From contig JAZDQA010000004.1 in the NCBI GenBank assembly GCA_043797085.1, positions 75,005 through 139,004 on the forward strand: a stretch of 64,000 bases of DNA, given 5' to 3'. Position 1 is the stretch's first letter, and each line of letters begins with the position of its first letter. Below, in pieces: positions 24,726 to 58,191 of the stretch. Origin of the DNA: Pseudomonadota bacterium (GTDB lineage: Bacteria; Campylobacterota; Campylobacteria; Campylobacterales; Sulfurimonadaceae). The position numbers and the translations under genes were made by a program. Under the pieces are notes generated by a model. That model was given only the letters and a program-made list of their open reading frames with translations. It did no database searches and had not been told where the DNA came from.

Positions 24726-24781
24726 AGTTAAACCCCTGGATAAAGATGTTAATATTATAAAAGATTATGAAATAAATTGCT

Positions 24782-24795
24782 TTGATGCAGGTCAA
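24782..24795 (-). promoter_or_regulatory. Fnr/Nss-type box, cytochrome c553 promoter
   Basis: TTGAT-GCAG-GTCAA; minus-strand TATAAT at 24754-24759, 22 nt away. Confidence 0.75.
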
Positions 24796-24801
24796 GAGCC
24801 G

Positions 24802-25467
24802 TTACGATCGTAGGGTTATATGCGGGGCTAGTCTTTCATAGTCAACACGACGATTTGATGATGAAAGGTTTCCTATCGTTTTCATTCCCCCTTGAAAAAT
24901 CTGTACGTAATATTCGCGATTATATCCCCTACGCTTTAAGATCTTTGCCATGGTGATAATATCTTCTTCGTCTAGCAATTCTGGATGAAATGTTGTTCGT
25001 ACTTCAAAATCAATGCCACTATGATGAAGTATTTTAAAACTCTCCCAAAAACGTTTTTCGCTTCCGCCACCGCAGATTTCCCCCATTTTTGCTTCAGGGG
25101 CTTTGTAGTCTAGGGCAATATAATCAATAAGTTTGTTGTCGATTAGCACTTTAATCACATCAGGACGCATACCGTTGGTGTCGAGTTTGATTTTATATCC
25201 CAGTGTTTTTATAGAACGACAAAAAGCCAGAAGATGAGGGTAGGTCGTGCATTCGCCGCCACTAAGTACGACGCCTTCCAGCAGTCCTTGGCGACGGCGT
25301 AAAAAAGCAAGCGCTTCCTCTTCATCTATATGTGCAGTACCGAATACAATATCAGGATTGTAGCAGTAAACGCATCGCAGATTGCACCCTGCAAACCAAA
25401 AAATAGCCGCAGGAGTGTCGGGGAAATCGAGAAGGGTAAACGGGGTGATGTCGTAGAGTGCTTTCAT
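24802..25467 (-). CDS. nrdG: anaerobic ribonucleotide reductase activating enzyme (radical SAM)
   Basis: GCNLRCVYCYNP (CxxxCxxC), SGGE, KLDTNG; downstream of nrdD. Confidence 0.92.
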   Translation of the reverse strand: MKALYDITPFTLLDFPDTPAAIFWFAGCNLRCVYCYNPDIVFGTAHIDEEEALAFLRRRQGLLEGVVLSGGECTTYPHLLAFCRSIKTLGYKIKLDTNGMRPDVIKVLIDNKLIDYIALDYKAPEAKMGEICGGGSEKRFWESFKILHHSGIDFEVRTTFHPELLDEEDIITMAKILKRRGYNREYYVQIFQGGMKTIGNLSSSNRRVDYERLAPHITLRS

Positions 25468-25471
25468 GTTT

Positions 25472-25558
25472 CGTCATCCTCGGGCTTGACCCGGGGATCC
25501 ATCCCCTTTTTCATTCACAAAAATACTAAGCTGGATTCCCGCCTACGCGGGAATGACA
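25472..25558. repeat. CGTC-type REP-like palindromic heterodimer, copy 2
   Basis: CGTCATCCTCGGGCTTGACCCGGGGATCCA...CTGGATTCCCGCCTACGCGGGAATGACA, the reverse complement of the 6970-7043 element with a longer spacer. Confidence 0.85.
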
Positions 25559-25583
25559 GAGTGCTATAGGAAATAATATCTTG

Positions 25584-27847: not shown

Positions 27848-27932
27848 TGTTGTTCCTTTTTTTAGAATTTATATCCGGCTTAACGCCGTATTTTTAGATA
27901 GTTAATTGTAATGGATTTGGGGATTAATGTCT

Positions 27933-27946
27933 TTGACTTGGGTCAA
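27933..27946 (-). promoter_or_regulatory. Fnr/Nss-type box, nrdD promoter
   Basis: TTGAC-TTGG-GTCAA; minus-strand TACAAT at 27905-27910 (22 nt gap). Confidence 0.8.
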
Positions 27947-28043
27947 TATATCGAAGAAATACGTTGATTTATAGTGAGATATAAAAAGAGTTTAAGTGCG
28001 CTGGAATGACGAGTTCCAGCACGAAAGTTTTAGTTAAGAAGAA

Positions 28044-28064
28044 TAAAAAAGGCCCGAAGGCCCT
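28044..28064 (-). terminator. rho-independent terminator of the porin gene
   Basis: Minus strand AGGGCC-UUCG-GGCCUU followed by a U tract. Confidence 0.85.
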
Positions 28065-28076
28065 GAGGAGAAAGTA

Positions 28077-29420: not shown

Positions 29421-29494
29421 ATTTTTCCTTTAAGTTCAAGTTGATCTTTGAGAGATCAATGGTTTATTGTAAGACAAACAGATTCTGCATGTCA

Positions 29495-29508
29495 TTGACT
29501 TAGGTCAA
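29495..29508 (-). promoter_or_regulatory. Fnr/Nss-type box, porin promoter
   Basis: TTGAC-TTAG-GTCAA; minus-strand TACAAT at 29466-29471 (23 nt gap). Confidence 0.75.
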
Positions 29509-29517
29509 TAAGGTATT

Positions 29518-29880
29518 TTAAAATCGATCTTTGAGATCGCCGTTGTATTTAATATCGCGCTTTGTAGCGTTTTCATCGTTTAGCCACTCGGGTAAAGCGT
29601 CGCCTACTGCTTCAAGCTTATCACGCTCGGCATTGAGCTCATCTTCACTGTAAGCGAATGACATATCTGCAGAAATAATGTGATCCATAAACTGAATTCT
29701 TGTAAGTTTTTGAATCTCTTCTTCGACGCCTTCACCTTCAATGGTGACAATAATGCGCCCTTTTTCATCGTGAAAATGATAATCACAAAAATCAGAAGAT
29801 TTAAAAATTTCGACTACTTCTTCGGTAAAATTTGGGTTGGTTTGCACCACAATGCTTGAAATATTCACGGTATTCTCCAA
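29518..29880 (-). CDS. napD: NapA chaperone NapD
   Basis: NISSIVV, GRIIVTIEG; last gene of napAGHBFLD. Confidence 0.9.
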   Translation of the reverse strand: MENTVNISSIVVQTNPNFTEEVVEIFKSSDFCDYHFHDEKGRIIVTIEGEGVEEEIQKLTRIQFMDHIISADMSFAYSEDELNAERDKLEAVGDALPEWLNDENATKRDIKYNGDLKDRF

Positions 29881-30803
29881 TAATAAATTTTATTCTCTTC
29901 ACCCGAACCGATTAGGGTATGCTCATCCAAAAAGATCAGCGAATCGTAAAGGGTTTCTCCCCCTTTTAATCGTGCGATTTTTCTTTGAGTGGCTAAATCA
30001 AAAACTTGTAACTCATTTTCATCACCATCGGTATAAACCCCTTTGGATGCCGAAGGGCTAAGTCCGACTGCATAGACGAAAAAATCGGTTTCGATAAAAT
30101 AACTCCCCTTTGGACGATAAACCCCGACACGACGATCATGCCCACCGCTGAGGATGGTGTTTTGTTGATAGGAGAGCCCATTGATTGCATCCAGGTTGAG
30201 CCCGCTGAGCGTTTTTATTTTTCGACCACTCATTGTCTCAATTTGTACAATTTCACCACTTTCATCCCCTACGGCTAAGAGTGATTTCTTAGGACTAAGT
30301 GCCATATCCCCAAACACTCCTCCACCGGCTTGTACTTGGTAGACGAGGGTTTGCTTGTTCAAATCCATAAGAACGATTGTATCACCAGAGAGTCCGAAGA
30401 GTAAATGACTTACATCAAGAAAACGAACTTTTTTAATCAATAGTCCTCTCGAATTATCAATAACTTTTAGCATCTTATTGTCGCGCCATAGATAAACATT
30501 TCGAAAAGATTCACCACTCTCGGTCACGATAACCGTAGATGCTGCTAAATGATCGACAGAATAGATTTTTGGGGTAAAAACTTTGCCTAAAATGGAAACG
30601 TTTGGCGCAGTTATGGAACTGAGTTTATGTTTTGATACACTATCAAAAACATTCACAATTCCTGCATCTGTTGAGGTATAAATCTTGCCTTCTCGAACTA
30701 CCATGTCGCTGATTAACCCATCGGTTTTTAGTGTTGCAGAGTGGTTAATAACAGCTGCAACGCCAGTTATAAGAAGAAAAAATAAAAAAAATAATGTTTT
30801 CAT
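29865..30803 (-). CDS. napL: periplasmic WD40/beta-propeller protein NapL
   Basis: Signal peptide, WD-like repeats, position between napF and napD. Confidence 0.8.
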   Translation of the reverse strand: MKTLFFLFFLLITGVAAVINHSATLKTDGLISDMVVREGKIYTSTDAGIVNVFDSVSKHKLSSITAPNVSILGKVFTPKIYSVDHLAASTVIVTESGESFRNVYLWRDNKMLKVIDNSRGLLIKKVRFLDVSHLLFGLSGDTIVLMDLNKQTLVYQVQAGGGVFGDMALSPKKSLLAVGDESGEIVQIETMSGRKIKTLSGLNLDAINGLSYQQNTILSGGHDRRVGVYRPKGSYFIETDFFVYAVGLSPSASKGVYTDGDENELQVFDLATQRKIARLKGGETLYDSLIFLDEHTLIGSGEENKIYYWRIP

Positions 30804-31276
30804 GCTACCATCTCAATCGCACCGCTGGGGCACACGCCGATACAATATCCACATCCCGTACATTTTTCAGGGAGGATAATCGGATGCAACATGCCTTTGA
30901 AAACAATTGCATTCTCCAAGCACGGCTCCTTGCAGGAAAAACAAATCGTCCCGTGATGGGACATGCAATTTAACATGGTGATTTTCGCATGGCCTTGTAT
31001 GAAACGATTTGGATCATTTAGTACATTCGGAGTACATGCTTCGAGACATTTATGACAATCACTGCATCCTGTTGTTTTAAAATCCAAAAAAGGGATTTTC
31101 TGATCATCAAGACGAATGATGTTCTCTTCACACGCAGTTGCACACATCGCTTCACATGTTTTACACGCTTCAAATGTTTCATTCAAAAGCGCGTATGGAG
31201 GGCGAGTGGAAGATTTTACGTCATTAAAGAGTGCCGAAAGAGCACCAAAAAATCCTCCTCTTTTCGCCGTTTCCAT
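30800..31276 (-). CDS. napF: ferredoxin-type protein NapF
   Basis: RPPYA and multiple CxxCxxCxxxCP motifs. Confidence 0.85.
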   Translation of the reverse strand: METAKRGGFFGALSALFNDVKSSTRPPYALLNETFEACKTCEAMCATACEENIIRLDDQKIPFLDFKTTGCSDCHKCLEACTPNVLNDPNRFIQGHAKITMLNCMSHHGTICFSCKEPCLENAIVFKGMLHPIILPEKCTGCGYCIGVCPSGAIEMVA

Positions 31277-31278
31277 GA

Positions 31279-31887
31279 CTATAGTCCGTTTCCGACTTTG
31301 ACACCGATGTCAAGTTCATCCATGAGATACGATGACTTTTTATGCTTTTGACCTTTTTTATCGGTATAGTCCGGTTTGAAACTGCTCTCTACTCGCAGTT
31401 TCCCTTGGGTTTGCGGTGCATGGCATTGGGTACAGTTGTAACGTCCTTGCCAGAGTTGACCATGCAAATCTTTTTTGATAATAACATCATTGCTTTCAGA
31501 TTTGAAGTTATCATCTTCATCGGATTCTACCGCCGGTCTAAAGCTCGTGAAATGCGATTTTGGTATCGAAGTTGCCCCAACACTGGGAGCAATTTCAGGC
31601 ATGTGACATCCCAGACACGCATTGTTATTTTTATCAATCTCGCCTAGACTGTCAATTTCATGAGGAATCATCGGCGGTGCATTGGTATACGCACGCGGAA
31701 TTTTCTTTGACGTTCCGGGAGCTTCAGTGTGATAGTTAGTCCCATCTGGTTTAGCCGTGTCTTCTGTGTATAAATCAGCACTGCGCATCCCCAGCTGTGT
31801 TTCATCTATTGAGGTATTTCCAGCGTAAAGACCGCTAATAATCAGTGAAGCAGCAATGAAGCTGCTCATCATTTTTCTTGCTTTCAT
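31279..31887 (-). CDS. napB: periplasmic nitrate reductase diheme cytochrome c subunit
   Basis: APPMIPH, CLGCH, CTQCH. Confidence 0.93.
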   Translation of the reverse strand: MKARKMMSSFIAASLIISGLYAGNTSIDETQLGMRSADLYTEDTAKPDGTNYHTEAPGTSKKIPRAYTNAPPMIPHEIDSLGEIDKNNNACLGCHMPEIAPSVGATSIPKSHFTSFRPAVESDEDDNFKSESNDVIIKKDLHGQLWQGRYNCTQCHAPQTQGKLRVESSFKPDYTDKKGQKHKKSSYLMDELDIGVKVGNGL

Positions 31888-32702
31888 TCTTCATCCTTTG
31901 GTTGTTTTGTGAAACTTCGGATCGAAAATCCGAGCGCGTCTTCTTGACAGACATCTACGCATCTGCCACAATTTGTGCACTCACCCATAAGTACACTTTC
32001 ACTGCTGCGATTGATCATATGAAGGACCTCTTTTTCAGGGCACACCGTGATGCAACTGCGACAATCGGTACATTTATCAGCATCATGAGAAACACGGATA
32101 AGGGAAAATTTCCCGATAAGCGAATACGTCGCGCCCAGTGGACACACATACCCGCACCATCCATTCTCATGTACCAGTAAATCAAACAAAAAGATCACGA
32201 CTAGCGCACCGCCGCCCATCCCCATACCGAAGATAAGTCCACGGTGAGCCATTGAAACAGGGCTGATAAGTTCAAACGCTGCTACTCCCATAAGAGCAGA
32301 AAGGATTAAACTCAAACCTAAAATCCAATAGCGTAATGATCGGCTCATATAAAATCGTTTCTGCACTTCAGAAAATTTCAAAGCTCGACGCAGCCATGCC
32401 GCCGTATCGGTAATAATGTTGATAGGACACACCCAGCTGCAAAAGGCACGCCCACCGATAACACCATAGAAAAGTGTCACGATTAATGCACCGAGCAGTA
32501 TATCCATCCCTAAACTTGCCCCCGTAACGGCAATTTGCATCACCGCATAGGGATCACTTAGGGGAATAACTCCCAACACAGAGGAAGTGCTGAGATTACC
32601 TTGCAACATTTTCCATCCCCACACATTGGCTCCTATATAAAGAACCAAGAGTGTGATTTGTGTTAAACGACGGAGGATTAAATAGCGATAATTTTTCATC
32701 AT
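31884..32702 (-). CDS. napH: quinol dehydrogenase membrane subunit NapH
   Basis: FCSWVCP, WCGYVCPLG, two CxxCxxCxxxC clusters. Confidence 0.95.
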   Translation of the reverse strand: MMKNYRYLILRRLTQITLLVLYIGANVWGWKMLQGNLSTSSVLGVIPLSDPYAVMQIAVTGASLGMDILLGALIVTLFYGVIGGRAFCSWVCPINIITDTAAWLRRALKFSEVQKRFYMSRSLRYWILGLSLILSALMGVAAFELISPVSMAHRGLIFGMGMGGGALVVIFLFDLLVHENGWCGYVCPLGATYSLIGKFSLIRVSHDADKCTDCRSCITVCPEKEVLHMINRSSESVLMGECTNCGRCVDVCQEDALGFSIRSFTKQPKDEE

Positions 32703-33502
32703 AATCCTCCTTCGTCATTGAGTGAATCAAGCGCACTTTTTTCGCTTATCTTGGTTTTAGTGACCTCTATTGAGGCTCCTTCTAACCGTTTTTCGTCCGT
32801 TTTATCCCACCCTTTTATATAGTGGTCTCCCACTTTCCCCATGGCTAATGCTCTGGGGAAGATATGGATAGCGGCGATTTCAGTAACACATGCGTGCTCA
32901 CACATCCCGCATCCTGTACACACTTCCGCATGCACAACAGGTTTTAAAAATGCATGCTTCCCCGTGCGTTCATTTTTGGACGTTTCGATGGTAATGGCTT
33001 CGCCTAAAAGCGGACACGCACGGTAGCACGCATCACACTGGATTCCCCACACGGCGATACACGAACTCTCATCGACCACCGCTAAACCCATACGCGATTT
33101 ATTGATGTCCAAAACGGCTTTGCTTTTCACATAGCTGCTTACGGAGGGTTCGTTCAATGCACCGCTAGGGCACACCGGTACACACGGAATATCCGTACAC
33201 ATATAACAAGGTACAGATCGTGGGGTAAAAAACGGTGTCCCGATGGGGAGATTGTCCCCTGGACGCGCTAATATCAGAGTGTCATACGGACACGCTTCCA
33301 CACACAAACCGCACTTGATACAGTTTTTGATAAACTCCGCTTCATCCAGCGCTCCCGGAGGGCGCAAAACCAGAGGCGCTGCTTTTACTTCACCCACATA
33401 GGCACTCCAGACCAAAGCCCCCATCGCACTCAACCCAATTCCTCTCGCAATAGAGAGGAGAAAACGGCGACGATCATTAGGAGTTTTAGTACTCATGGTC
33501 AT
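32699..33502 (-). CDS. napG: quinol dehydrogenase ferredoxin subunit NapG
   Basis: Tat RRRFL, LRPPGA, CIKCGLCVEACP and further 4Fe-4S motifs. Confidence 0.95.
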   Translation of the reverse strand: MTMSTKTPNDRRRFLLSIARGIGLSAMGALVWSAYVGEVKAAPLVLRPPGALDEAEFIKNCIKCGLCVEACPYDTLILARPGDNLPIGTPFFTPRSVPCYMCTDIPCVPVCPSGALNEPSVSSYVKSKAVLDINKSRMGLAVVDESSCIAVWGIQCDACYRACPLLGEAITIETSKNERTGKHAFLKPVVHAEVCTGCGMCEHACVTEIAAIHIFPRALAMGKVGDHYIKGWDKTDEKRLEGASIEVTKTKISEKSALDSLNDEGGL

Positions 33503-36291
33503 TACGCTTTATAGATTTTGACGGCACATTTTTTGTGGTCGATTTGTTTAGAAATCGGACACGTGTGATCCAAACATACTTTGTTGATAAATACTTTTTC
33601 ATCAAACCATGGTACGAATACCAATCCTTTTGGAGGACGGTTACGACCACGAGTTTCGACGTGTGCTTTTACTTTACCACGGCGTGATTCTACCCACACC
33701 ATCTCGCCACGCTTCACTCCGCGCTTTTGTGCATCATCAGGGTGCATATAACACAATGCCTCCGGAACCGCACGATAAAGCTCAGGAACACGCATCGTCA
33801 TGGTACCGCTGTGCCAATGCTCGAGTACACGACCGGTACAAAGCCAAATGTCATAGTTTTTATCAGGTACTTCGGTTGGTTCCATATACGGACGGAAAAA
33901 GATTTTGGCTTTGTTATCCAAATTCACTTTTGCACTGTTCGTAACCCCTTTAAGATTTCCGGTTGGAATGTCTTTGAACGCATGGCCGTAGAATGCGAAT
34001 GCACCGTTGTTTGCTTTTTTCGCATACGGATCGTATTTCGCGTTGTAACGCCAGAACGTCTCTTTCCCATCGACAACCGGCCATTTTAGACCGCGTACAC
34101 GGTGATAGGTATCGAAATCGGCGTAGTCATGTCCATGCCCGTCACCAAATTTACGATACTCTTCCCAAAGATATTTTTGGATGAAGAAGCCATATCCTTT
34201 GAACGGTTTTCCATCGCTTCCGATAACATTACGTTTATCGCCTTCAACTTCAGAGTTTTGATAGCCTTTGCCCACTGGATCAGGCCATTTAAATGCTTTT
34301 GCCCGTGCATTGCCAAAAAGGACATCGTACAAGGTTGAGTTATCGTTGTATCCCATTGCTTTGGCTTTGCCCATAACGTCAGGTAATCCGCCATCCAGTC
34401 CTGGAATTTTTTGCGCTCCCCATACTTCTTTGATCGTAAAGCGTTTGGAAAGCTCTACAAACTGCCATGTATCGGACATCGAATCACCCATTGGAGTGAC
34501 TTGCTGACGCCAGTGTTGTGTTCGGCGTTCTGCATTACCGTACGCTCCCCATTTCTCATACATCATCGCACTTGGTAAAATCAAATCGGATACTTTTGCT
34601 GAAATTCCCGGATAACCATCGGACGTTACGATAAAGTTGTCCATGTTTCGAGCTGCTTTAATCCAGTGATCTGCATTACCGGTATCTTGATACGGATTAC
34701 AAACACTGACCCATGCAAATTTCACCTTGCCATCTTCGAGATCACGGTGGATCTGAGTAAAGTGCGATCCTGCTTTTGGGTTAATCGTTCCATCAGGAAT
34801 CGCCCAGATGCCTTCTGCCATTTTACGGTGAGCAGGGTTCATGACGACCATGTCCGCAGGAAGTCGGTGACTGAATGTTCCTACTTCACGAGCTGTTCCA
34901 CACGCGGATGGTTGACCTGTGAGCGAGAATGCACCATTACCCGGTTTGGCTTGTTTACCCAGTAGGAAATGCACCATGTAAGCTTGTTCATTAACCCATG
35001 TTCCACGTGTATGCTGATTAAAGCCCATCGTCCAGAATGTCAAACATTTGCGTTTTTTCTCGATGTAAAGATCTGCCATTTTTTTAAGTTTTGCTTTGTA
35101 GCTTTCCATGCTCTCATCTGCATCACCTTTGGAAACGTGTGCAACATAATCGAGGGTATAGGGAGCAAGACCTTTTTTGAACTCTTCAAAGGTGATTTTC
35201 CAATGTTTGTTCGCATCATTGGTATTTTTCATCTCCAGCGTATCGCCCTCTTTGTAGCCTAAATATCCAAGACTGACTCCCTCATCGGCAGTTAGAACTT
35301 TAGATTTTTGTTTGGCTGCGGTATCGAGCTCTTTCGCCCCATATTTAGGGTGGTGAATGTCTTCGCGAAGCCCGTATCCGATGTCTACAGGACCGGTTGC
35401 AAATACGATATTTTTATCTAAGAACTCTTTGTCCATGGCTTCAGGATGATTGTACACAATCTCACGAGCGATGTAGTTCCAAATCGCCAAATCGGTATTA
35501 GGCTTGAAGATGATTTCGACATCCGCTAGGTCCATCGTACGATGTTTGTAGGTCGATAGAACAACAACTTGTACTTTATCAGGATTACTAAGTTTACGAT
35601 CACTGACACGTGACCAGAGGATAGGGTGCATTTCCGCCATATTTGAACCAAACGCAACAATCGTTTCAGCAAGTTCAATGTCCTCATAACAGCCCGATGG
35701 TTCATCCGCTCCAAAAACGTTCATGAATCCAGTAACAGCAGATGCCATACAAAGACGTGCATTAGGATCGATGTTGTTGGTACGGAATCCCGCTTTCATT
35801 AGCTTGAGTGCTGCGTGACCCTCCATCGCCGTTTGCTGACCTGAGCTGAACATCGCGATGCCGGTAGGTCCTTTTTCTTTGAGAGCTGATTTGATGTGTA
35901 TTTCCATCTCATCAAAAGCACGTTTCCAGCTGACAGGTTTGAATTTGCCCTGCTTATCAAATTGGCCTTTATCGTTCATGCGCAATAACGGCTGAGTAAG
36001 ACGATCCGCACCGTACATGATTTTGGCGTTAAAGTATCCTTTGATACAGTTAAGACCGCGATTAACCGGAGCCAATGGATCACCCTTGACTGCGACGATA
36101 CGATCGTCTTTGGTTGCCATCATGATACCGCATCCCGTTCCGCAAAAACGGCATGCCGCTTTATCCCAACGCCATCCTGCCTGACCCTGAGCTGATGCTG
36201 CTTCGACTGAAGCAGGTACTGCCATTCCTATTGCTGTTGCGGCAGACGCTGCTGCTGCACTTTTTAAAAATTCTCTTCTATCCAATGACAT
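33502..36291 (-). CDS. napA: periplasmic nitrate reductase catalytic subunit
   Basis: Tat signal [14 protein letters not shown]...[12 protein letters not shown] (Mo-Cys), TGRVLEHWH. Start set to ATG 36291. Confidence 0.98.
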
Positions 36292-36412
36292 AAAAGCCCC
36301 CTTAGTGGAATCACTTGTTCGTTCCAAAATGGACGAACTCCTTAAGTTTTCCTGATGCTATGAAATAACTCATGCACTTCAAACATTATAAAGAAATAGG
36401 AGAAAAAAGGTT

Positions 36413-36426
36413 TTGACTTAGGTCAA
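36413..36426 (-). promoter_or_regulatory. Fnr/Nss-type box, napA promoter
   Basis: TTGAC-TTAG-GTCAA; minus-strand TATAAT at 36385-36390 (22 nt gap), placing the box near -41.5. Confidence 0.85.
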
Positions 36427-36444: not shown

Positions 36445-37341
36445 TTAGGCATTTCGTATTTCGTTGGCTTTTTGGAGGTTGTTTTTAAGTTTTTTAAGAC
36501 GCAGAGAGGTTTGGTGCAGTTCTTCGCTTACTTGGATCATTACATCTTCACTTTGTTCTAGCAGTTCTTCGGCTTCGGGGGTGGAACTCATGAGACTGGC
36601 AGTTGCAGCTTCACTCTTCTCGACCGCATCCGTAGCACTTTGGAGCGCTTCTTCGACATTACGTAAAAAATACTCGATATGAGAGCAGGCAATATCGAGT
36701 TCGTTTCCACTATGGGTGAGATTTTCTTCACCGCTAATACTTTTTGAATGTTCTAGGAATTTTTCAAAATTGCGTTGTATCTGTAATGTTGTCCGCGCCA
36801 TGTAGAGGATAATAGCAAAAGAGATGAGGGCAAGAGTAATTTGAATACGGTGCGCCAGTACTCGTTTTTCCATCATCGATTCTTCGTATTGGTTCACTGC
36901 TTTGTCCATCAATGCCAGCGTTTGATCTCCATTCTCATAAATGGTTTTAAGATCATACAAGTTGTGATCCCCTTGTAAATAACGATCGATCAGTCCTCCC
37001 ATGCGATTCCAATGTCTATGCACTTCCATCATGGTAATATCGATTTTTTCATTTTTAAAAGCATGATAGTCTGAAGTCGTTGCACTAAGCTGTTTAAAAT
37101 TACGATCAAATTCTTCTCGTGCACTTTGCAGCCGCTCGTATGCTCCATCTTCATCCACCAACAGACGGTGTAGTTCCAAGACGGTACGCTGGGAGAGCAT
37201 TCGCTGTTTTCCGGCTGTATTGATTACTTTGGCATCGAGTTTTTGAGATGAATTGAGCCAAATATCGACCATAATAATAGTAATAAGATTGATTGAGAGA
37301 ATGAGAACGATCCAACGAATTTTAGTAGATATTGATTGCAT
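36445..37341 (-). CDS. membrane protein with NarX/PilJ-type nitrate-sensing periplasmic domain and no kinase domain
   Basis: TM1, P-box-like DAKVINTAGKQRMLSQR, TM2, then about 115 aa of coiled coil only. Confidence 0.8.
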   Translation of the reverse strand: MQSISTKIRWIVLILSINLITIIMVDIWLNSSQKLDAKVINTAGKQRMLSQRTVLELHRLLVDEDGAYERLQSAREEFDRNFKQLSATTSDYHAFKNEKIDITMMEVHRHWNRMGGLIDRYLQGDHNLYDLKTIYENGDQTLALMDKAVNQYEESMMEKRVLAHRIQITLALISFAIILYMARTTLQIQRNFEKFLEHSKSISGEENLTHSGNELDIACSHIEYFLRNVEEALQSATDAVEKSEAATASLMSSTPEAEELLEQSEDVMIQVSEELHQTSLRLKKLKNNLQKANEIRNA

Positions 37342-38033
37342 TATAGCCCCTCCGTAAAATAGTGTGCTAACTCATCTCGTAAAAGAATGAGTGTTTTGTG
37401 ATCTTCTTCGATGATAATGCCCTTACGGATAAATTTAGCCAATACACGCGAAAGGGTAGCTGGCTGAATATTAAGACGATAGGATATTTCTTGTTTTTTC
37501 AGACTGTTATAAAGATCAAGATTTCCGTGCAGCATTTTAGCAACTTTTGCAGTGACATCGTGCACCATTCCCATCGTTACCATACAATCGATCATTTGTT
37601 TTTGATTCGCGAGAAGATTCACCAATCGAATCAGTAACGTATTGTCATTTTTTACAACCTCATTAAAAGCTTTTAAATCACACGACATCACGCGGCTGTG
37701 GGAGAGAAACTCAACATTGCTAAAACAACTGATACGATCACAATCAAGTGAACCGATATTGGTCAGTAATGCTTGATCCTTTAAGGTATACAAAAAAACT
37801 TCGTTATCAAATCGATCCACTTTATAAAACTTCACTTCTCCCTCAAGGAGAAAATAAACACGATTAATATCATCATCTTCATACACTAAGATATCCGATG
37901 CTTCATAATTTTTTATTTTTGTATTAATGGATAATGGGGATAGTTTTTGCGGATCACATCCTTTAAAAAAATCAAGCTGTTCCAACATCAATGGAGTATT
38001 CCTTACGTAATAATCTATTTTAAATGATAACAC
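37341..38033 (-). CDS. Crp/Fnr-family transcriptional regulator
   Basis: YFLLEGEVKFYK cNMP-binding fold, C-terminal HTH QEISYRLNIQPATLSRVL. TAATG coupling to the sensor gene; start uncertain (38033/37991/37988). Confidence 0.9.
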   Translation of the reverse strand: MLSFKIDYYVRNTPLMLEQLDFFKGCDPQKLSPLSINTKIKNYEASDILVYEDDDINRVYFLLEGEVKFYKVDRFDNEVFLYTLKDQALLTNIGSLDCDRISCFSNVEFLSHSRVMSCDLKAFNEVVKNDNTLLIRLVNLLANQKQMIDCMVTMGMVHDVTAKVAKMLHGNLDLYNSLKKQEISYRLNIQPATLSRVLAKFIRKGIIIEEDHKTLILLRDELAHYFTEGL

Positions 38034-38051: not shown

Positions 38052-38065
38052 TTGACATAAATCAA
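38052..38065 (+). promoter_or_regulatory. Fnr/Nss-type box, moaA promoter
   Basis: TTGAC-ATAA-ATCAA; plus-strand TACCAT at 38088-38093 (22 nt gap). Confidence 0.75.
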
Positions 38066-38106
38066 GAACATCCATTTGAAGATAAGCTACCATAAGCCAA
38101 GTATAA

Positions 38107-39098: not shown

Positions 39099-39848
39099 TT
39101 ATGCCTCCAGATAGTATCCAACTCCTGAAGCATTTTTGATGACATCTTCGGAAAGCTTTTTACGTAAACGCCAGACTAGAGTTCGCACACTATTGACACT
39201 CACATATTCTTCTCCCCAAACATACGACATCGCGAGTTCAAAATCGACTGTACGTCCAAAATTAACAGCCAGTAATCGGATAAAAGCATTCTCTGTTTTA
39301 CTCAAATAAATTTTTTGATTTTTATAAAAAGTCTCTCCCAGTGAAATGTCATGTCGATAATATTTTCCAAATTCGACAATAGGTTTATCGGAGCTTTTTT
39401 TAACAAAGAGAAGCTTTTCAAGATCCTCTTTGTTGTGTTTTAACTCATCGATATTGACGAATCTTTTTTGCTCTTCTTCGAAACGATACAGTGCCATTTG
39501 GATTGTTGTGTGAAGATTGAGTGGTTCAAAAGGTTTGACTATATAGCCGTAAGGCTCTGTCTGCTTGGCATTTATAAGTGTATTACTTCCAGAATGGGCG
39601 GTGAGATAGATAAAAGGGAGCGGCATTTTAGTACGAATAAATTGCGCTATTTCTATTCCTTGCTTCTGGCCTTTTAGCTCTATGTCGATGAGTACGATGT
39701 CAGGATAGTAAATTTTTAGTTTTTTTTGAGCACTTTGCTTATCATTAGCGACTGAGACTACCTTATATCCGAATGTCTCCAACGATAGGGTTAAGTTGAG
39801 AGCTGTAACATCATCATCTTCAACGATAAGTATTTTAATGGATGCCAC
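39099..39848 (-). CDS. orphan response regulator (REC plus OmpR-type winged HTH)
   Basis: ILIVEDD, DIVLIDI (phospho-Asp), KPF, VRTLVWRLRKKL, GVGY. Confidence 0.9.
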   Translation of the reverse strand: MASIKILIVEDDDVTALNLTLSLETFGYKVVSVANDKQSAQKKLKIYYPDIVLIDIELKGQKQGIEIAQFIRTKMPLPFIYLTAHSGSNTLINAKQTEPYGYIVKPFEPLNLHTTIQMALYRFEEEQKRFVNIDELKHNKEDLEKLLFVKKSSDKPIVEFGKYYRHDISLGETFYKNQKIYLSKTENAFIRLLAVNFGRTVDFELAMSYVWGEEYVSVNSVRTLVWRLRKKLSEDVIKNASGVGYYLEA

Positions 39849-39929
39849 AGGACTCCTTTATAATTTTTAGTGACTGTTCTGATGGCTAGAAAGATTCAAA
39901 CATAATAGCAAATGCCTAAGAGATAGTAT

Positions 39930-39943
39930 TTGATATAGATCAA
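39930..39943 (-). promoter_or_regulatory. Fnr/Nss-type box, response regulator promoter
   Basis: TTGAT-ATAG-ATCAA; minus-strand TATTAT at 39902-39907 (22 nt gap). Confidence 0.7.
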
Positions 39944-39946
39944 AGT

Positions 39947-41701
39947 TTAGAGCTCCCAATATTTCTTGCTAGTCATTAATTTCTTGATTTGCGGAGAAAG
40001 GTTTTGATCGGCTTGCCCAATCGTCCAAAGTTTTTTACTCAAAGAGCGTATAGCATTTTCAAAATTATTGTCAATCAGAGATAAAAAGGATTCGCCGGAA
40101 AAAGACTCTTCCAACAACTTTCTTTCTGCGTCAAAACGACAAAAAGCAATTTTGTAAAAATGGGTATTATCCAAACTGTGCAACATCATTTTTGACCCTG
40201 TATCAAGTTTCGCCAAAAACCATAACGCACAAAACTCCTCTGAATAATGGTTGAGGACGTGGGTAGAAAAGTCTTCAAAGCTCTCCTGTTCACTGGCTTC
40301 ATACTCATCGATAATCATCTCGATAACATTACCGATGTGTTCGATGGGAACCATCGTAAAAAGCTCTCTTCCCACACTGATCCCATTCGAGTGTTGTGCT
40401 CCAAAATAGATGCGTGCGGCTTTATCAACCTCTCCAAAACTGCTCGTACGCAATCCTATCAGCCCAATATCGCAGTGCTGATGTCTTCCACATCCTTTGG
40501 CACAGCCTGAAACACCCACTTGGATACGATGCTTTTGAATTTTATCCAGAGGCAATAAAAGTGCTTCATTTTTTAAATCCCAAAACGAAAATGGGCAATA
40601 ACTGCTCCCTGCACACACAATTACTGTGGCGCTTTTGGGGAGATTTTCAAAAGGGGATGTTTTTTCAAAAAGCCCTAAAATGACAATATTTTGCTGGGTA
40701 GTGAGTCGCACTTCTGCTTCGTTTATATGGGCAAAAGTGGCGATTCGTGTAAGCTCATCGGGTGTTACACGTCCAAAATCACTCTCATAGCAAAAAGCAT
40801 AGCTCCCGTCTTGAAGTTTTTCACTCTTCGAAAATTTTCTTTTTTCCAGTATCAGCGTCCCTGCAGTTTGCCACGTTTTTTGATACTCTTGTGCAATGTA
40901 TTCTTTAAACATTTCGATGCCGATCGTCTCAAGGAGATAAAAAAGACGTATTTGTGAGCGTGTCGTTCGTAACCCATGTTTGTTAAATGCCTCGATAAAA
41001 GCACTAAAAAAAACTACGACTTCATCCGTGAGCAAGAATATATTGGCACAGCGGGCTATCTCAGTATTTTTGCCGCCCATATAGACGTTAAATCCGAAAA
41101 TTTTATCTTTTTGTGCCAATCCAAAATAGAGATCATTAGCAAAAAATGAGGTAACATTCGCTCGATTTCCAGAAATACCGGTTGAAATTCTCCGTGGTAA
41201 CATCCCAATTTGACGAGGAATTTTGAGGATAGTCTGTTCCATTTTCACAATAAGGGGATATGCCTCAATCTCGCAGGTTTCACCCAGACCGTCATACACA
41301 TCCGTCACGATATTTCGAACATTATCGCCAAACGTCTGCCATGTGGTGATTCCTGTTGCGTTAATTTGATGAAAAACACTCAATACGTTCTCGCTGGTAA
41401 GTCCATGCAGTTGTATTCCTGCACGTGCGGTCAGGATGATGTCAAGAGAATGAGACTTTGCAATGTGCGCAATGGAGTGAAGTTGTTGAACAGTTATACG
41501 ACCTGCCGTGATGCGCAAACGAAGAGTAAAATCTTCTTCATTCAGAGGGTTATTAAAAATACCAAAATCTTGAAGATAAAAAATGTCGGCTTCACTGAGT
41601 GCACTAAAATCAAGAGTTTCAATTTGCGGATAATAGTCATACGGAATCATTTTCGCTTTGTAGCGTTCCCGTTTATTCAGCTTTTTTTCGACAATACTCA
41701 T
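39947..41701 (-). CDS. ferredoxin-dependent siroheme nitrite/sulfite reductase
   Basis: LRLRITAG, LTARAGIQ, GDNVRN, VRLTTQQN; siroheme/4Fe-4S ligands CAGSSYC and SGCAKGCG. Confidence 0.88.
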   Translation of the reverse strand: MSIVEKKLNKRERYKAKMIPYDYYPQIETLDFSALSEADIFYLQDFGIFNNPLNEEDFTLRLRITAGRITVQQLHSIAHIAKSHSLDIILTARAGIQLHGLTSENVLSVFHQINATGITTWQTFGDNVRNIVTDVYDGLGETCEIEAYPLIVKMEQTILKIPRQIGMLPRRISTGISGNRANVTSFFANDLYFGLAQKDKIFGFNVYMGGKNTEIARCANIFLLTDEVVVFFSAFIEAFNKHGLRTTRSQIRLFYLLETIGIEMFKEYIAQEYQKTWQTAGTLILEKRKFSKSEKLQDGSYAFCYESDFGRVTPDELTRIATFAHINEAEVRLTTQQNIVILGLFEKTSPFENLPKSATVIVCAGSSYCPFSFWDLKNEALLLPLDKIQKHRIQVGVSGCAKGCGRHQHCDIGLIGLRTSSFGEVDKAARIYFGAQHSNGISVGRELFTMVPIEHIGNVIEMIIDEYEASEQESFEDFSTHVLNHYSEEFCALWFLAKLDTGSKMMLHSLDNTHFYKIAFCRFDAERKLLEESFSGESFLSLIDNNFENAIRSLSKKLWTIGQADQNLSPQIKKLMTSKKYWEL

Positions 41702-41778
41702 GCTTTTTTCTTACACAAAAAGTTCATAGAACCCCGATTTGTTTTGTCGTATTTTAGTTGAATTTAGGGGGAGAACTA

Positions 41779-41792
41779 TTGATGTAAGTCAA
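41779..41792 (-). promoter_or_regulatory. Fnr/Nss-type box, siroheme reductase promoter
   Basis: TTGAT-GTAA-GTCAA; minus-strand TAAAAT at 41751-41756 (22 nt gap). Confidence 0.75.
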
Positions 41793-48205: not shown

Positions 48206-48805
48206 CTACCGCAGGATATAAACTAAAGGGAAAAGGACAATCCACAGTAAATCCACTAAATGCCAATAAAGTGCGCCTGTTTCAAGCCCTCTGCAATTCT
48301 CAGGACTGTAGCCATGAATTTTTGTTTTTCGGTAAAGATTGAATAAAATAATGACACCCAAAGAGACGTGCATAAAATGAAACATCGTTAACAGCAGATA
48401 AAACATAAAAAATGTATTGGTACTGAGGGTAATTCCCTGCGCAAAGAAATGAGAAAACTCAGTGAACTTTAAAACGAGAAACAGAATCCCTAAAAGCATC
48501 GCAGCTAAAAGCCATTTTGAAGCAATGATACTTGATTCATAAGCATTGCTTTGAGCCATGTTTTTGATTTTTTGAACCGCTTTGACGATAAAAAAACTGC
48601 TTGTAATTAAAATAAGTGTATTTATAAATCCGATACTTTGGTTGAGTAAAAGTTGAGAATCATTAAACATTTGCAGATTGACTCTACGTGAAAAAGCGTA
48701 TCCTGTAAACAATAACCCAAACGTCAGTAACTCCACGTAGACGATGATCCAAATGGCAAAATCACCCGGTGGATAGGGCTCTTTTTGTGAAAGAATTTTA
48801 GACAT
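48206..48805 (-). CDS. norE: NorE-like (cytochrome c oxidase subunit III family)
   Basis: NTLILITSS, FHFMHV, LYWHLVDLLWIVLFPLVY. Confidence 0.85.
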   Translation of the reverse strand: MSKILSQKEPYPPGDFAIWIIVYVELLTFGLLFTGYAFSRRVNLQMFNDSQLLLNQSIGFINTLILITSSFFIVKAVQKIKNMAQSNAYESSIIASKWLLAAMLLGILFLVLKFTEFSHFFAQGITLSTNTFFMFYLLLTMFHFMHVSLGVIILFNLYRKTKIHGYSPENCRGLETGALYWHLVDLLWIVLFPLVYILR

Positions 48806-49589
48806 GTAAGCTTTTGGTAAAATGGAGTGATATTAGCTTTTCAAGCACGTCTAGGACATCCTCTTCATCACTGAGCGATTCGACAATCGAATGCATACAC
48901 GCTTGATAAGGGTCAAAACCTTTTGTGATTAATTTACCTGCATAAATGAGTAATCGTGTTGATACCGCTTCTTGAATATCGCTGTCGCTTAGTCGGCGGA
49001 TTTCACCGGCTATATCGACAAGCTTTTGGGCTGTAGTACTTTCTACTCCACTTTCTTTAATAATGATTTCTTTTTCTATTTCAGGTTTTGGATAATCAAA
49101 ACTCAGTGAAATAAAGCGTTGTTTGGTACTGGGTTTCATCCCTTTTAATACATTCTGATACCCTGGATTGTACGATACTACGAGCATAAAATCAGGATGG
49201 GCAGTGATGACTTCACCGGTACGATCAATCGGTAAAACTCGACGATAATCGGCAAGAGAATGTAGTACTACCGTCGTATCTTTTCGCGCTTCGATAATCT
49301 CATCGAGATAGCAAATGCCCCCGTTACGCACCGCCTTTGTCAATGGTCCGTCTTGCCAATACGTGCCGTTTTCATCGATAAGGTGACGACCGACCAAATC
49401 GGCGGCACTGAGATCATCATGACAAACGACAGTATAAACATCGCGATCCAGCTCTTCCCCCATCGCTTCGACAAACCGTGTTTTTCCGCATCCTGTCGGT
49501 CCTTTGATTAATATAGGGAGGTTCATCCCCGCAGCCGCTTTGAAAAGCTCAACTTCGTTACCTTGGGGTAAATAGTACGTTTTTGACAT
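48798..49589 (-). CDS. norQ: NorQ AAA+ ATPase (MoxR/CbbQ family)
   Basis: KGPTGCGKT, YLDEIIEAR, SYNPGYQ, STRLL. Confidence 0.93.
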   Translation of the reverse strand: MSKTYYLPQGNEVELFKAAAGMNLPILIKGPTGCGKTRFVEAMGEELDRDVYTVVCHDDLSAADLVGRHLIDENGTYWQDGPLTKAVRNGGICYLDEIIEARKDTTVVLHSLADYRRVLPIDRTGEVITAHPDFMLVVSYNPGYQNVLKGMKPSTKQRFISLSFDYPKPEIEKEIIIKESGVESTTAQKLVDIAGEIRRLSDSDIQEAVSTRLLIYAGKLITKGFDPYQACMHSIVESLSDEEDVLDVLEKLISLHFTKSLHV

Positions 49590-53222: not shown

Positions 53223-53291
53223 AATTCCACCATAGGGTAGTAATTGTAATATTAGCGGAATAGTTTTTAATTCTACCTTTAAGTAGTAATT
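53223..53291. promoter_or_regulatory. two copies of a 23-bp pseudo-palindromic motif in the norC promoter
   Basis: AATTCCACCATAGGGTAGTAATT (53223-45) and AATTCTACCTTTAAGTAGTAATT (53269-91), 18/23 identical. Copy 1 overlaps the minus-strand TACAAT (53243-48). Confidence 0.55.
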
Positions 53292-53408
53292 AAATGAACG
53301 GTTGTTTATAGGAAAGCTATTAAAAGGGATTAAAAACTCAATAGTGTGAAGAAAATAGTGGGGATTTATATTCGTTATGTCAGTTTTAAGGAAAAAAAGG
53401 TGAGTAAA

Positions 53409-53430
53409 ATCCCTCGGAAGAAGGAGGGAT
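53409..53430 (-). terminator. probable terminator hairpin after nirS
   Basis: ATCCCTC-N8-GAGGGAT stem followed on the minus strand by TTTT. Confidence 0.55.
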
Positions 53431-53462
53431 AGTAATAATAATTTTTTTATATTTTCTATACG

Positions 53463-55103: not shown

Positions 55104-55203
55104 TCGTTACTCCTTGCATTTGTAAAATATGGATAGGGCATAGTTCGTAAAGCTTTATGGATCCTACTTGAGTTAGTGTACTTGAAAAGGGGAGGCAGCT
55201 TCA

Positions 55204-55217
55204 TTGATATAAATCAA
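55204..55217 (-). promoter_or_regulatory. Fnr/Nss-type box, nirS promoter
   Basis: TTGAT-ATAA-ATCAA (perfect FNR consensus); minus-strand TACACT at 55175-55180 (23 nt gap). Confidence 0.85.
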
Positions 55218-55231
55218 ATTTTTTAAAGTTT

Positions 55232-55873
55232 TTAAGAAAAAAGTTCTTTTAGTCCCTCTCGATTCAAGATGGTGAAATTTTTCCCCTCATCACTGATGAG
55301 TCCGAGAATCTTGATTTTTTTGAAAGAGCGTGAGAGTGTTTCGGGGGTAAGTCCTAAAATCGTTGCAATCTTATGTCTCTTGGTTGAATCGGAAATATCT
55401 CCATTTTCATATAAGAATTTAGCCACACGGGAGGTTGCATCCAGTGCTAACCGTGTGGTAATAATATCTTCGAGGTATTTGAGCTTTTGAGTCAGCGATT
55501 TTATCAATTCAAAGGATACGGTAGGATTTTTTAGAAAATCACGCTCAAAAATAGGATAATCGATTTCCAAAATACTTCCATCCGTTTGAAATTCTGCGGT
55601 TGCCGGGAATGGAATATGGTGAAGATTGGCCATTTCTGCTACTAACGAAACGGGATAAAAATAGTGCAGTACGATTTCGTTTTCTTTCATATCTGTTTTG
55701 TAGCCTTTGAGGACACCGTCTAGTAATATATAAAGTTTATCCGAATGAGTCCCCTCATAAAAGAGGATCTCACCATTATTAAAGGATCGTAGTTTTACGA
55801 TAGAGGCTAAATGAATTAAATCTGTTTCGCTCAGATGTGAAAAAAGAAAAATACTTTTTAATCGGTTCACCAT
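55232..55873 (-). CDS. Crp/Fnr-family regulator (DNR/Nss-like)
   Basis: LYILLDGVLKGYK, AEMAN, FPATA, HTH LGLTPETLSRSF. ATG 55873 overlaps the receptor stop (TAATG). Confidence 0.92.
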   Translation of the reverse strand: MVNRLKSIFLFSHLSETDLIHLASIVKLRSFNNGEILFYEGTHSDKLYILLDGVLKGYKTDMKENEIVLHYFYPVSLVAEMANLHHIPFPATAEFQTDGSILEIDYPIFERDFLKNPTVSFELIKSLTQKLKYLEDIITTRLALDATSRVAKFLYENGDISDSTKRHKIATILGLTPETLSRSFKKIKILGLISDEGKNFTILNREGLKELFS

Positions 55874-58056
55874 TAAAGTTTCAAATTGGTTTGTAGATAC
55901 CATGATCGTCCTTCTGCTTTTTCATAACTGTAATACTCTTTGTTCATAAGATTGCTAATCGCAAGATTGATATCAATGTTTTTGTTGATTCTGTATCCGA
56001 TCTTCGTATTGACGATTCCGGCAGCATCCAAGGAGCCGTAGACATTAGAGACACTATCGCTATTATCGGAATTATTGTAAATTTTGGATTGATAGGCATA
56101 GTTAATCAGACCATAAAATTGATGATTATCATAGGTGAGAGTTGCATTGGCCATATCTCTTGGAATGCCGGTGAACTGTTTATCAACGGATGCTGGATCG
56201 CTCTCATTTTCTAAAACTTTTGTATAGGATTTCGTATAATTGGTGTTGAGGGTAAAATCATAGTCAAGCGGCTGAATGTACGATAATTCATACCCCTGAG
56301 AGCGTGCTTTTCCAACGTTTGTTCTTTCATAATAACTTTTTCCGGCAATGATAACAGGCGTTTTAGTGGAGATCATATCTTCGATTGTGGTATGAAACCA
56401 ATACGCTTTAAAAAGACCGTTTAAGACTGTTTTTTTCTCTATCCCCACATCATACGATTCGCTGTACTCCGGTTTTAGATTCGGATTCGACACATAAACT
56501 CTATTTAATGCTGCAATTTCATACGTTCGATAAAGATTGACCGGATCAGGAGCTCTGAAAGCTTGCCCCCAGGATGCTTTGATCATCGTGTCGTCTGTTG
56601 CTTTATAGTTGAGAGATATTTTTGGGGAAAAATTATTTTTGTGTTGGGTAGAATAGGTTTGATTGAGCGTTGTATTGGACATATTGATATCAGAAACATA
56701 TCCATCATAGCTGGTCCATGTTTCGAATCGGGCCCCGATATTGGCTGATAGACTATCGGTTAGTTTACTTTGCAGCTCTGCAAAAGCCGCTAATATTTGC
56801 TCTTTCCCACCTGAGCTCGCGGTCCTATTTGTTTTGGTGTCTTCATTTTTCCAATCGCTCATATTGAAGGTATCGGAAACGGATACATTATTTTTATATT
56901 CACTTCCCAGTAAAAGAAGAGAACTTCCGATAGGTTTTTGCCACGTTGCATGGAGCATAGCGTTTTTGACATCTCTTGGGGTAAAAGTACCAACTCCGCC
57001 TGTGCGTGTCGCCGATGTACCTGCAGTGGTATACCAATCTTCTACAGACAAGTATGAATAGCGGATATCCAACTCGGAATCCGAAAAAGTATGTCCGTAA
57101 TCAAGGATAGTGAGATCACTGTTCAGCTCACTGGAACCTTGTAAAAATTTAGATTCTTTTAGTCCTGCATAGGTATAGACAGTATTTCCAGAAGCATTAC
57201 TAATAAATGATTCAGGATCATTGTAGTGCACATCATAATGGGATTTTCGATACGAAGCACTCAGGGTGTCTTTGGCCGTTGGTGTATAGAGCAGTTTGGT
57301 TGAAAGATCATATTTGTGAACACCACGATCACCTGCATTTCCGACAATATATTGTGTCCCTCCGGTGGGAGAAGGCTCCGTGATGTATCCGCTAATCGTA
57401 CCGGGAGGCTTTGTGGTAATGGCAACAAAATCGGATTTATATCCATCAGTACTTAACGCGCCATAGCTGACTTTGAATTTTAAAGTATCAATGATCTTAT
57501 CCGCAGCCGATACATAGACCTTGGTCAAATTAGCCTGCGCTTCACCGTCATTAAATGCATCTCCGTACCCGATAGAGGCTTTGTACTCAGGCTCATTTGG
57601 CATTTTGGTAATATAATTGATGACACCGCCTATAGCACTGCTGCCATAAAGGCTCGAAAATGGTCCCCGAATCACTTCAACCCGTTCTAAATCTTCAGGC
57701 TGAATAGAATAGGGCATCGAAGCCGTACTCGTATAGCTGGTATTCATTGGAATTCCATCGAGTAGTATCATCGTACGTGATTGATCCGGAATCCCTCGAA
57801 GCACAACCGTAGGATTGACATCTGATAATCCCCTATGTTGAATAACTGTAACTCCCTCAAGTGTTTTTACAGTCTCTTTTAGATTGGCTCTTGGTAACAT
57901 TCCAATAGCTTCTTGTGTAACAACACTGACGCTTCCGGGAGCATCTTCGAGAGTTGTTTCTGTCTTGGTTGCGGTAACAATGATAGGATCTAAGGAAACT
58001 CCATCCGCAATTAAATAGGTTGTGACGACCAAAAAAAGTAGTATCTTTTTTTTCAT
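55873..58056 (-). CDS. TonB-dependent outer membrane receptor
   Basis: TonB box (IIVTAT), plug (LRG...LLDG, ERVEVIRGPFSSLYGSSAIGGVINYIT), FRAP and NPNL motifs. Confidence 0.93.
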   Translation of the reverse strand: MKKKILLFLVVTTYLIADGVSLDPIIVTATKTETTLEDAPGSVSVVTQEAIGMLPRANLKETVKTLEGVTVIQHRGLSDVNPTVVLRGIPDQSRTMILLDGIPMNTSYTSTASMPYSIQPEDLERVEVIRGPFSSLYGSSAIGGVINYITKMPNEPEYKASIGYGDAFNDGEAQANLTKVYVSAADKIIDTLKFKVSYGALSTDGYKSDFVAITTKPPGTISGYITEPSPTGGTQYIVGNAGDRGVHKYDLSTKLLYTPTAKDTLSASYRKSHYDVHYNDPESFISNASGNTVYTYAGLKESKFLQGSSELNSDLTILDYGHTFSDSELDIRYSYLSVEDWYTTAGTSATRTGGVGTFTPRDVKNAMLHATWQKPIGSSLLLLGSEYKNNVSVSDTFNMSDWKNEDTKTNRTASSGGKEQILAAFAELQSKLTDSLSANIGARFETWTSYDGYVSDINMSNTTLNQTYSTQHKNNFSPKISLNYKATDDTMIKASWGQAFRAPDPVNLYRTYEIAALNRVYVSNPNLKPEYSESYDVGIEKKTVLNGLFKAYWFHTTIEDMISTKTPVIIAGKSYYERTNVGKARSQGYELSYIQPLDYDFTLNTNYTKSYTKVLENESDPASVDKQFTGIPRDMANATLTYDNHQFYGLINYAYQSKIYNNSDNSDSVSNVYGSLDAAGIVNTKIGYRINKNIDINLAISNLMNKEYYSYEKAEGRSWYLQTNLKL

Positions 58057-58177
58057 ATTAACTCCTATTTCAGGGATTTTTTAATCTATACTACTCAAAT
58101 TAAGCCTTTAGGAGCGGAAAGAGGAAATTAGTTACGTAAAGAATAGGTAATTGTAAAGAGTTTGAAGAATAAAGTCT

Positions 58178-58191
58178 TTGATATAAGTCAA
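58178..58191 (-). promoter_or_regulatory. Fnr/Nss-type box, TonB receptor-regulator operon promoter
   Basis: TTGAT-ATAA-GTCAA; minus-strand TACAAT at 58150-58155 (22 nt gap). Confidence 0.8.

Follow-up and report, generated by a model that had tools for sequence, protein, structure and literature searches.

The 64,000-nucleotide (nt) stretch of Sulfuricurvum DNA analyzed here, hereafter called the window, carries a 33-kb island of genes for respiration of nitrogen oxides (N-oxides). The target genes in the window were checked against Pfam and NCBIfam profiles, which identified a monoheme cytochrome c (24426-24725, called c553 below), NrdD, NrdG, NapA, MoaA, an OmpR-type response regulator, a reductase with a NIR_SIR domain, the cytochrome cd1 NirS, and a TonB-dependent receptor (TBDR). 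The original prediction, which was made from the letters of this DNA, had proposed that these genes form a regulon marked by palindromic Fnr/Nss-type boxes. The identities that it gave to c553, nrdD, napA, moaA, the response regulator, the siroheme-type reductase, nirS, and the TBDR agree with the profile matches. The product of its "porin" gene has a signal peptide and a C-terminal Phe, but the match to the Opr porin family is below threshold (39 bits against a cut-off of 150), and a search of solved structures with this protein returned no match; it is called porin-like here.

The box pattern TTGAYNNNNRTCAA has 10 exact matches in the window, compared with 0.69 expected (standard deviation 0.73) from dinucleotide-preserving shuffles of the same DNA, and none of the 100 shuffles reached 10. 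Nine of these boxes are intergenic and lie exactly where they had been placed by the original prediction (Table 1). Each of the nine has a TAnnnT hexamer downstream, read toward the gene, at the predicted distance; this spacer measures 22 nt at seven of them and 23 nt at the other two, the porin-like gene and nirS. The tenth box, at 48903, had not been listed. It lies inside an open reading frame (ORF) for a NorQ-like protein, no TAnnnT hexamer was found at 21-24 nt from it, and it is probably a chance match. The flanks of the window, which encode housekeeping genes (rpoD, hemL, aspS, recQ, an MCP, a Fic protein, and a hydrogenase), had been described as free of intergenic boxes, and this description holds: the pattern scan found no exact box in the first 24 kb or the last 5.8 kb, and the looser pattern TTGA-N6-TCAA adds just three matches in the window (13581, 24137, and 63899), all of them within ORFs.

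Table 1. Boxes, promoter elements, and associated genes in the window, with the Crp/Fnr paralogs and the promoters found elsewhere in the genome (C, contig).
Feature	Position	Strand	Oriented box	Gene	-10 hexamer	Spacer (nt)	Remark
c553 box	24782..24795	-	TTGACCTGCATCAA	24426-24725	TATAAT 24754-24759	22	
nrdG	24802-25467						
nrdD box	27933..27946	-	TTGACCCAAGTCAA	25745-27847	TACAAT 27905-27910	22	
Porin-like gene box	29495..29508	-	TTGACCTAAGTCAA	28077-29420	TACAAT 29466-29471	23	
nap operon	29518-36327	-					likely napA ATG at 36291
napA box	36413..36426	-	TTGACCTAAGTCAA		TATAAT 36385-36390	22	
Crp/Fnr paralog 1, nap-linked	37341-37988	-					215 amino acids; recognition helix PATLSR
Shared bidirectional box	38052..38065	.				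22, both sides	
Box 38052, + side					TACCAT 38088-38093	22	faces moaA
Box 38052, - side					TATCAT 38024-38029	22	faces operon of nap-linked Crp/Fnr regulator and PilJ-domain sensor
Response regulator box	39930..39943	-		39099-39848	TATTAT 39902-39907	22	orphan OmpR-type
NIR_SIR reductase box	41779..41792	-		39947-41701	TAAAAT 41751-41756	22	siroheme-type
Tenth exact box	48903..48916	.					inside NorQ-like ORF 48798-49589
nirS box	55204..55217	-	TTGATTTATATCAA	53463-55103	TACACT 55175-55180	23	
Crp/Fnr paralog 2, nir-linked	55232-55903	-					213 or 223 amino acids by start codon; PETLSR; no cysteine
TBDR box	58178..58191	-		55873-58056	TACAAT 58150-58155	22	
Third Crp/Fnr paralog	C3:44435-45064						other contig; 209 amino acids; PETLSR helix; one Cys
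Promoter outside window	C9:99752						precedes hemerythrin-DUF2249-membrane protein operon
Promoter outside window	C14:72119						precedes NnrS; divergent TolC-like gene
Promoter outside window	C4:182089						precedes small cytochrome c
Promoter outside window	C6:86257						precedes unknown 203-aa protein

The same scan, with the spacing constraint, was extended to the complete assembly (2.4 Mb in 14 contigs, 96% complete), with intergenic DNA defined by a crude ORF map. This genome contains 38 exact boxes, 10 of which are within the 33-kb stretch. Thirteen of the 38 are in promoter-like intergenic DNA, and all 13 have a TAnnnT hexamer at 22-23 nt in at least one direction, compared with 2 of the 24 in coding regions. 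A random intergenic position has this geometry with a chance of 0.114, so that the probability of finding it at 13 of 13 is ∼6e-13. The offsets of TAnnnT hexamers around the intergenic boxes show a sharp peak at 22 nt (12 cases), followed by 23 nt (4 cases), on a background of about 1 per offset. Perfect boxes with the -10 geometry gave 16 oriented matches in 285 kb of intergenic DNA versus 2 in 2.12 Mb of coding DNA, and the composite pattern of box plus hexamer gave 18 matches in the genome versus 1 for a reversed-pattern control.

Boxes with one mismatch and the same geometry were found at 6 intergenic positions when ∼4.4 were expected, which is background; real sites in this genome are therefore essentially all perfect matches. 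Boxes with one or two mismatches were rejected as further sites on the basis of these counts, with only C11:32377 and a weak site at window position 16717 being even possible. The latter (TTGATAATAGTGAA, 16717-16730) is a one-mismatch box 21 nt upstream of a TATAAT and ahead of recQ; being off-consensus in both box and spacing, it is probably no more than the promoter of recQ with a chance near-box.

The promoter elements are also conserved among relatives. A footprint of the nap promoter was made from 14 Sulfuricurvum loci in which the nap-linked regulators are 71-99% identical to the present one, and the box, the adjoining AACCTTT, and the CTTTATAAT -10 element are kept across these loci, whereas the DNA upstream of the box has diverged freely. 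The nirS box and its 23-nt spacing are unchanged in five loci (L015-L019), with TACACT as the -10 hexamer in four and TAGAAT in L018. A box ahead of the TBDR-regulator pair recurs in relatives with variable central bases, and the two-sided arrangement at box 38052, between moaA and the nap-linked regulator, is kept as well. A search of 20 relatives for the composite pattern (box, 22-23 nt, TAnnnT) had the backward reading of this pattern as its control; genus relatives contained 3-20 matches versus 0-4 for the control, and members of other genera of the order contained 17 versus 0, 14 versus 0, and 9 versus 1. In another genus, a composite site lies directly upstream of napA, adjoining a regulator homolog. 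If the boxes were functionless AT-rich palindromes that arose by chance, the ∼25 exact boxes in coding DNA would be in keeping, as these occur at about the chance rate; set against the enrichment, the invariant geometry, the conservation next to diverged DNA, and the coherent gene set of the intergenic boxes, this explanation is effectively refuted.

Candidate proteins to read the boxes are three Crp/Fnr paralogs, one linked to nap and one to nir in the island, and a third on another contig. Both local regulators match PF00027 and PF13545, and the third paralog matches PF13545. The true start of the nap-linked regulator is Met16 of the longest ORF, as its orthologs and the database copy have 215 amino acids. 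The original prediction had placed the regulon in an "anoxic" program. An FNR-type cysteine cluster (an N-terminal Cys cluster plus a central Cys) was sought in the three paralogs and found in none of them; they contain 5 (nap-linked), 0 (nir-linked), and 1 (third) cysteines, and orthologs of the nap-linked paralog have lost two of its five, among them the one near the N terminus. The anoxic part of the prediction is therefore unsupported, as is the label Fnr-type anoxia sensor; Nss/Dnr-type is a fair label for these regulators. Among proteins with solved structures, DNR of Pseudomonas aeruginosa is the top match for the nap-linked paralog, and for the nir-linked one it ranks fourth, ahead of FNR and CRP; the sequence identity to DNR is low (E values of 3.5e-10 and 2.9e-5). 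The nir-linked paralog is 51% identical to the Wolinella succinogenes Crp/Fnr protein P0227, the record of which carries no Nss name, and the nap-linked paralog is 24% identical to it.

The recognition helices of the paralogs differ at one position. An E--SR helix (positions E209, S212, and R213 of FNR) is present in the nir-linked and third paralogs. The nap-linked paralog retains the Ser and Arg of this motif and has Ala at the position of the Glu found in FNR, DNR, and CRP (Glu181 of CRP), and this Ala is kept in orthologs down to 60% identity.

The genes for both island regulators lie behind boxes. Box 38052 had been assigned to moaA, which is correct as far as it goes, because the hexamer on its plus side faces that gene, but the assignment is incomplete, since a second hexamer at the same distance on the other side faces the nap-linked regulator. 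The TBDR gene and the nir-linked regulator gene share a TAATG overlap of stop and start codons, and the regulator gene is therefore presumably co-transcribed from box 58178; in a more distant relative, the nir-linked regulator has its own box directly upstream. With box 38052 facing one regulator and box 58178 serving the other, both local regulators would be inside the regulon, and so would be auto- or cross-regulated.

We interpret the boxes as operators for dimeric Nss/Dnr-type Crp/Fnr activators at a class II position, with 13 such promoters genome-wide and with an N-oxide as a likelier signal than O2, and assign a probability of about 85% to this interpretation. A box centered at -41.5 is the class II position known for E. 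coli FNR and CRP. As we envisage it, a dimeric Crp/Fnr activator would bind a box that ends 22-23 nt upstream of the -10 hexamer, and a transcription start ∼7 nt past the hexamer would put the box at about -48 to -35, with its center at -41.5 (-42.5 for the two 23-nt cases). The bound dimer would touch RNA polymerase and stand in for a -35 element. The 13 promoters would serve 15 or 16 transcription directions. Nine of them are in the accessory 33-kb respiratory island, where the boxes would drive c553, nrdDG, the porin-like protein, nap, moaA, the orphan response regulator, the siroheme-type reductase, nirS (perhaps with nor), and the TBDR. The four promoters outside the window, which precede the hemerythrin-DUF2249 operon, NnrS with a divergent TolC-like gene, a cytochrome c, and an unknown 203-aa protein, would be a genus-wide core. 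NO or another N-oxide, or a route via partner sensors, would be a more likely signal than O2 acting at an Fe-S cluster.

This interpretation keeps the core of the original prediction, a regulon for N-oxide respiration that is marked by boxes of the Crp/Fnr/Nss type at class II distance and to which nrdD, an outer-membrane protein, and a TonB receptor also belong. The statistics, conservation, and literature strongly back that core, which is very probably right. The regulon extends beyond the window, however, as four more promoters with the identical geometry lie elsewhere in the genome, and a third Crp/Fnr paralog adds to the two local regulators. Two points weigh against the interpretation. 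Only the -10 hexamers underlie the class II placement, with putative start sites, and because Ala replaces the residue equivalent to CRP Glu181 in the nap-linked paralog, this protein might not bind TTGA boxes, so that a variant site or something else would be its target.

It is very improbable that the boxes are repressor operators or dual-function sites. A study of Nitrosophilus labii inferred a negative relation of one Crp/Fnr gene to nosZ (PMC11539149), and Campylobacterota promoters often work without a -35 element, both of which would fit repression. However, the N. labii boxes behind this suggested negative control of nosZ lie across the start site and not at -41.5, and a repressor needs no single face or distance, whereas the fixed 22-23 nt to the -10 hexamer found at 13 of 13 sites is a hallmark of class II activation.

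The original prediction had further suggested that half-sites of the TTGAC type (nap, nrd, and porin) and of the TTGAT type (nirS and TBDR) separate the targets of the two paralogs. This split is not clean. Among the 13 sites, three have C/G in both halves (napA, the porin-like gene, and nrdD), three have T/A in both (nirS, the response regulator, and the cytochrome c), and seven are mixed, including the TBDR box, which also varies among relatives; a 3/7/3 division is the expectation for independent half-sites. Because the boxes are palindromes, the call of TTGAC or TTGAT also depends on the strand that is read. When the sites are oriented by transcription, the promoter-distal half is TTGAT at all four core sites outside the window versus 3 of 10 island promoters, the other 7 of which have TTGAC. 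A post hoc hypergeometric estimate for this difference is ∼0.035 (one-sided), which is no more than suggestive.

A survey of co-occurrence in 13 genus genomes supports paralog-specific modules, in the sense of modular co-inheritance and not of binding specificity, as the relatives are not independent and promoters travel with genes. Eight genomes have the nap-linked paralog, napA, and nrdD, and four have none of these; in the remaining one, napA is divergent and a different paralog lies near it. Four genomes have both the nir-linked paralog and nirS, and the other nine have neither. Where a genus genome is without both island regulators, a homolog of the third paralog is found (49-66% identity across these genomes). 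In the four genomes without either island regulator, a paralog with 49-51% identity to the third one remains, and a composite box is kept upstream of the hemerythrin-DUF2249 operon; in one of the four, a composite box is also kept upstream of an operon for the unknown protein and the cytochrome c. Genomes with one paralog have 3-6 composite sites, and those with two or three have 9-20. The third paralog probably regulates the core with hemerythrin and NnrS. Genes for NnrS and of the dnrN/ytfE type belong to the classic core of NO-responsive regulons (PMC1274295).

The Ala in the nap-linked helix raises an alternative division of labor, in which only the paralogs with a Glu helix (nir-linked and third) bind TTGA-N6-TCAA, and the nap-linked paralog (A--SR) reads another operator, for instance the palindrome in the nap leader described below, or acts only with its PilJ-domain membrane partner. 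The residue at position 181 has been linked to the bases that are recognized, as NssR, which has Gln at this position, reads TTAAC, and a comparable shift is seen in HcpR2 (Rodionov et al., PMC1274295). The persistence of the Ala in orthologs points the same way, as do the presence of at least one other paralog in every genome that has the nap-linked one and the conserved single-copy element in the nap leader. Against this division, nap and nrdD, which have box-bearing promoters, co-occur strictly with the nap-linked paralog, and the gene for this paralog lies behind the bidirectional box. In addition, one relative among the eight (G011) has two nap clusters (C8, ∼79.6-84.1 kb, and C27, ∼52.5-57.0 kb; NapA 99% and 91% identical to the present one). 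Each cluster includes a separate copy of the nap-linked regulator (73% and 93% identical to the present one) and a separate promoter of box plus TATAAT. The Ser and Arg of E--SR are retained, and no second palindromic motif for this paralog, such as TTAAC-N4-GTTAA or similar, was enriched; the palindromes that were enriched are GC-rich and REP- or terminator-like. On balance, we consider this alternative division of labor unlikely.

A more far-reaching reading, which we regard as unlikely, is that the three paralogs share the core box and yet are insulated from one another. Each module (nap-nrd-c553-moaA and nirS-TBDR) would travel with its own auto-regulated paralog, discrimination would come from box positions 5 and 10 together with the Glu-to-Ala change, and the third paralog would keep the NO-stress core of hemerythrin and NnrS.

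The nap leader contains an imperfect palindrome, ATGA-N6-TCAT (GTGCATGAGTTATTTCATAGCAT, 36355-36377, minus strand), at about +2 to +24 from the predicted start. The element is kept in the 14 Sulfuricurvum loci, with some paired changes in its arms. It was rejected as a repeated operator, since there is a single copy in the genome; it could serve as the operator of some other regulator or form an RNA hairpin.

Box 39930 starts 4 nt past the end of the preceding ORF (39947-41701). At box 41779, a -10 hexamer toward the divergent LpxR-like gene was sought and none was found. Upstream of norC, in the nirS-norC intergenic region (53234-53462), no box resembling TTGA-N6-TCAA was found, even with two mismatches allowed; AATTACTAC-like motifs are repeated near the norC start, which fits separate control, perhaps of the Rrf2/NsrR type. 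A search of the 96%-complete genome for nosZ (Sec-type, TIGR04246) did not find it; as nap, nirS, and norCB are there, denitrification in this organism may stop at N2O.

Other patterns were noticed in the course of this analysis. Promoters of the hemerythrin/NnrS class (C9:99752, C14:72119, and L052-L054 of relatives) almost always have TATACT as the -10 hexamer, and the island promoters mostly have TAYAAT, a difference that could define a subclass of promoters. Palindromes rich in GC, for example CCCGC-N4-GCGGG and TCCGT-N8-ACGGA, were counted 14 times in intergenic DNA, were absent from coding DNA, and look like a family of REP-like repeats. The motif TTGAA-N2-TTCAA is found at 23 intergenic and 13 coding positions, which is a ∼12-fold enrichment per base, and is unexplained.

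These results provide a clean and testable map of the promoters for N-oxide respiration in Sulfuricurvum, which is a common sulfur oxidizer of groundwater; our literature search found no paper describing this regulon in the genus. It leads to the prediction that cells turning on nitrate and nitrite reduction also turn on anaerobic ribonucleotide reduction, the synthesis of molybdenum cofactor, a channel in the outer membrane, and a TonB receptor. The near-exclusive use of perfect boxes, which makes the regulon unusually crisp, and the inheritance of modules with their own regulators make this a convenient system for studying how paralogous Crp/Fnr proteins with a common core motif avoid cross-talk. 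The principle as such was established earlier in Wolinella, Nitrosophilus, Pseudomonas, and E. coli; what is added here is a clear modular structure and a set of predicted members, namely the outer-membrane protein, the TonB receptor, the siroheme-type reductase, and the orphan response regulator.

The present regulon resembles those of E. coli FNR and Pseudomonas ANR/DNR in its TTGAT-N4-ATCAA dyad at -41.5 (a predicted position here), in the E--SR helix of two of its three paralogs, and in having anaerobic ribonucleotide reductase and denitrification genes among its targets. In E. coli and Pseudomonas, anaerobic ribonucleotide reductase is activated by FNR, ANR, or DNR. E. coli FNR and Pseudomonas ANR differ from the three paralogs of this genome in having the cysteine cluster. 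Within the same phylum, NssR of Campylobacter jejuni, which activates nitrosative-stress genes (Elvers 2005, as summarized in PMC1274295), is likewise a Crp/Fnr-family protein with an FNR-like dyad and N4 spacing. According to that summary, NssR reads TTAAC-N4-GTTAA and has A180/Q181, compared with TTGAY-N4-RTCAA and P-E or P-A helices here.

The consensus TTGA-N6-TCAA is attributed to the Nss proteins of Wolinella (Kern & Simon 2016, as cited in PMC11539149; see also PMC8139620), as the original prediction had stated. In these secondary accounts, W. succinogenes, also a member of the Campylobacterota, has three Crp/Fnr paralogs (NssA, NssB, and NssC) that target nap and respond to nitrate, NO, or N2O through something other than an FNR-type cluster, as proposed here. 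The targets that they give for W. succinogenes are nap, nrf, and nos, whereas those found here are nap, nirS, nrdD, the outer-membrane protein, the TBDR, and the siroheme-type reductase. The predicted geometry is directly supported by N. labii HRV44, a related campylobacterium in which exact TTGA-N6-TCAA boxes begin 48-49 nt upstream of the RNA-seq-derived starts of napA, norE, and nosB (PMC11539149). This placement equals the -48 to -35 predicted in the present case, where the start sites are inferred. The N. labii study allowed two mismatches in the box, whereas essentially only perfect boxes stand out in the Sulfuricurvum genome. In both organisms, one regulator gene lies beside nap and another beside nor/nir (PMC11539149).

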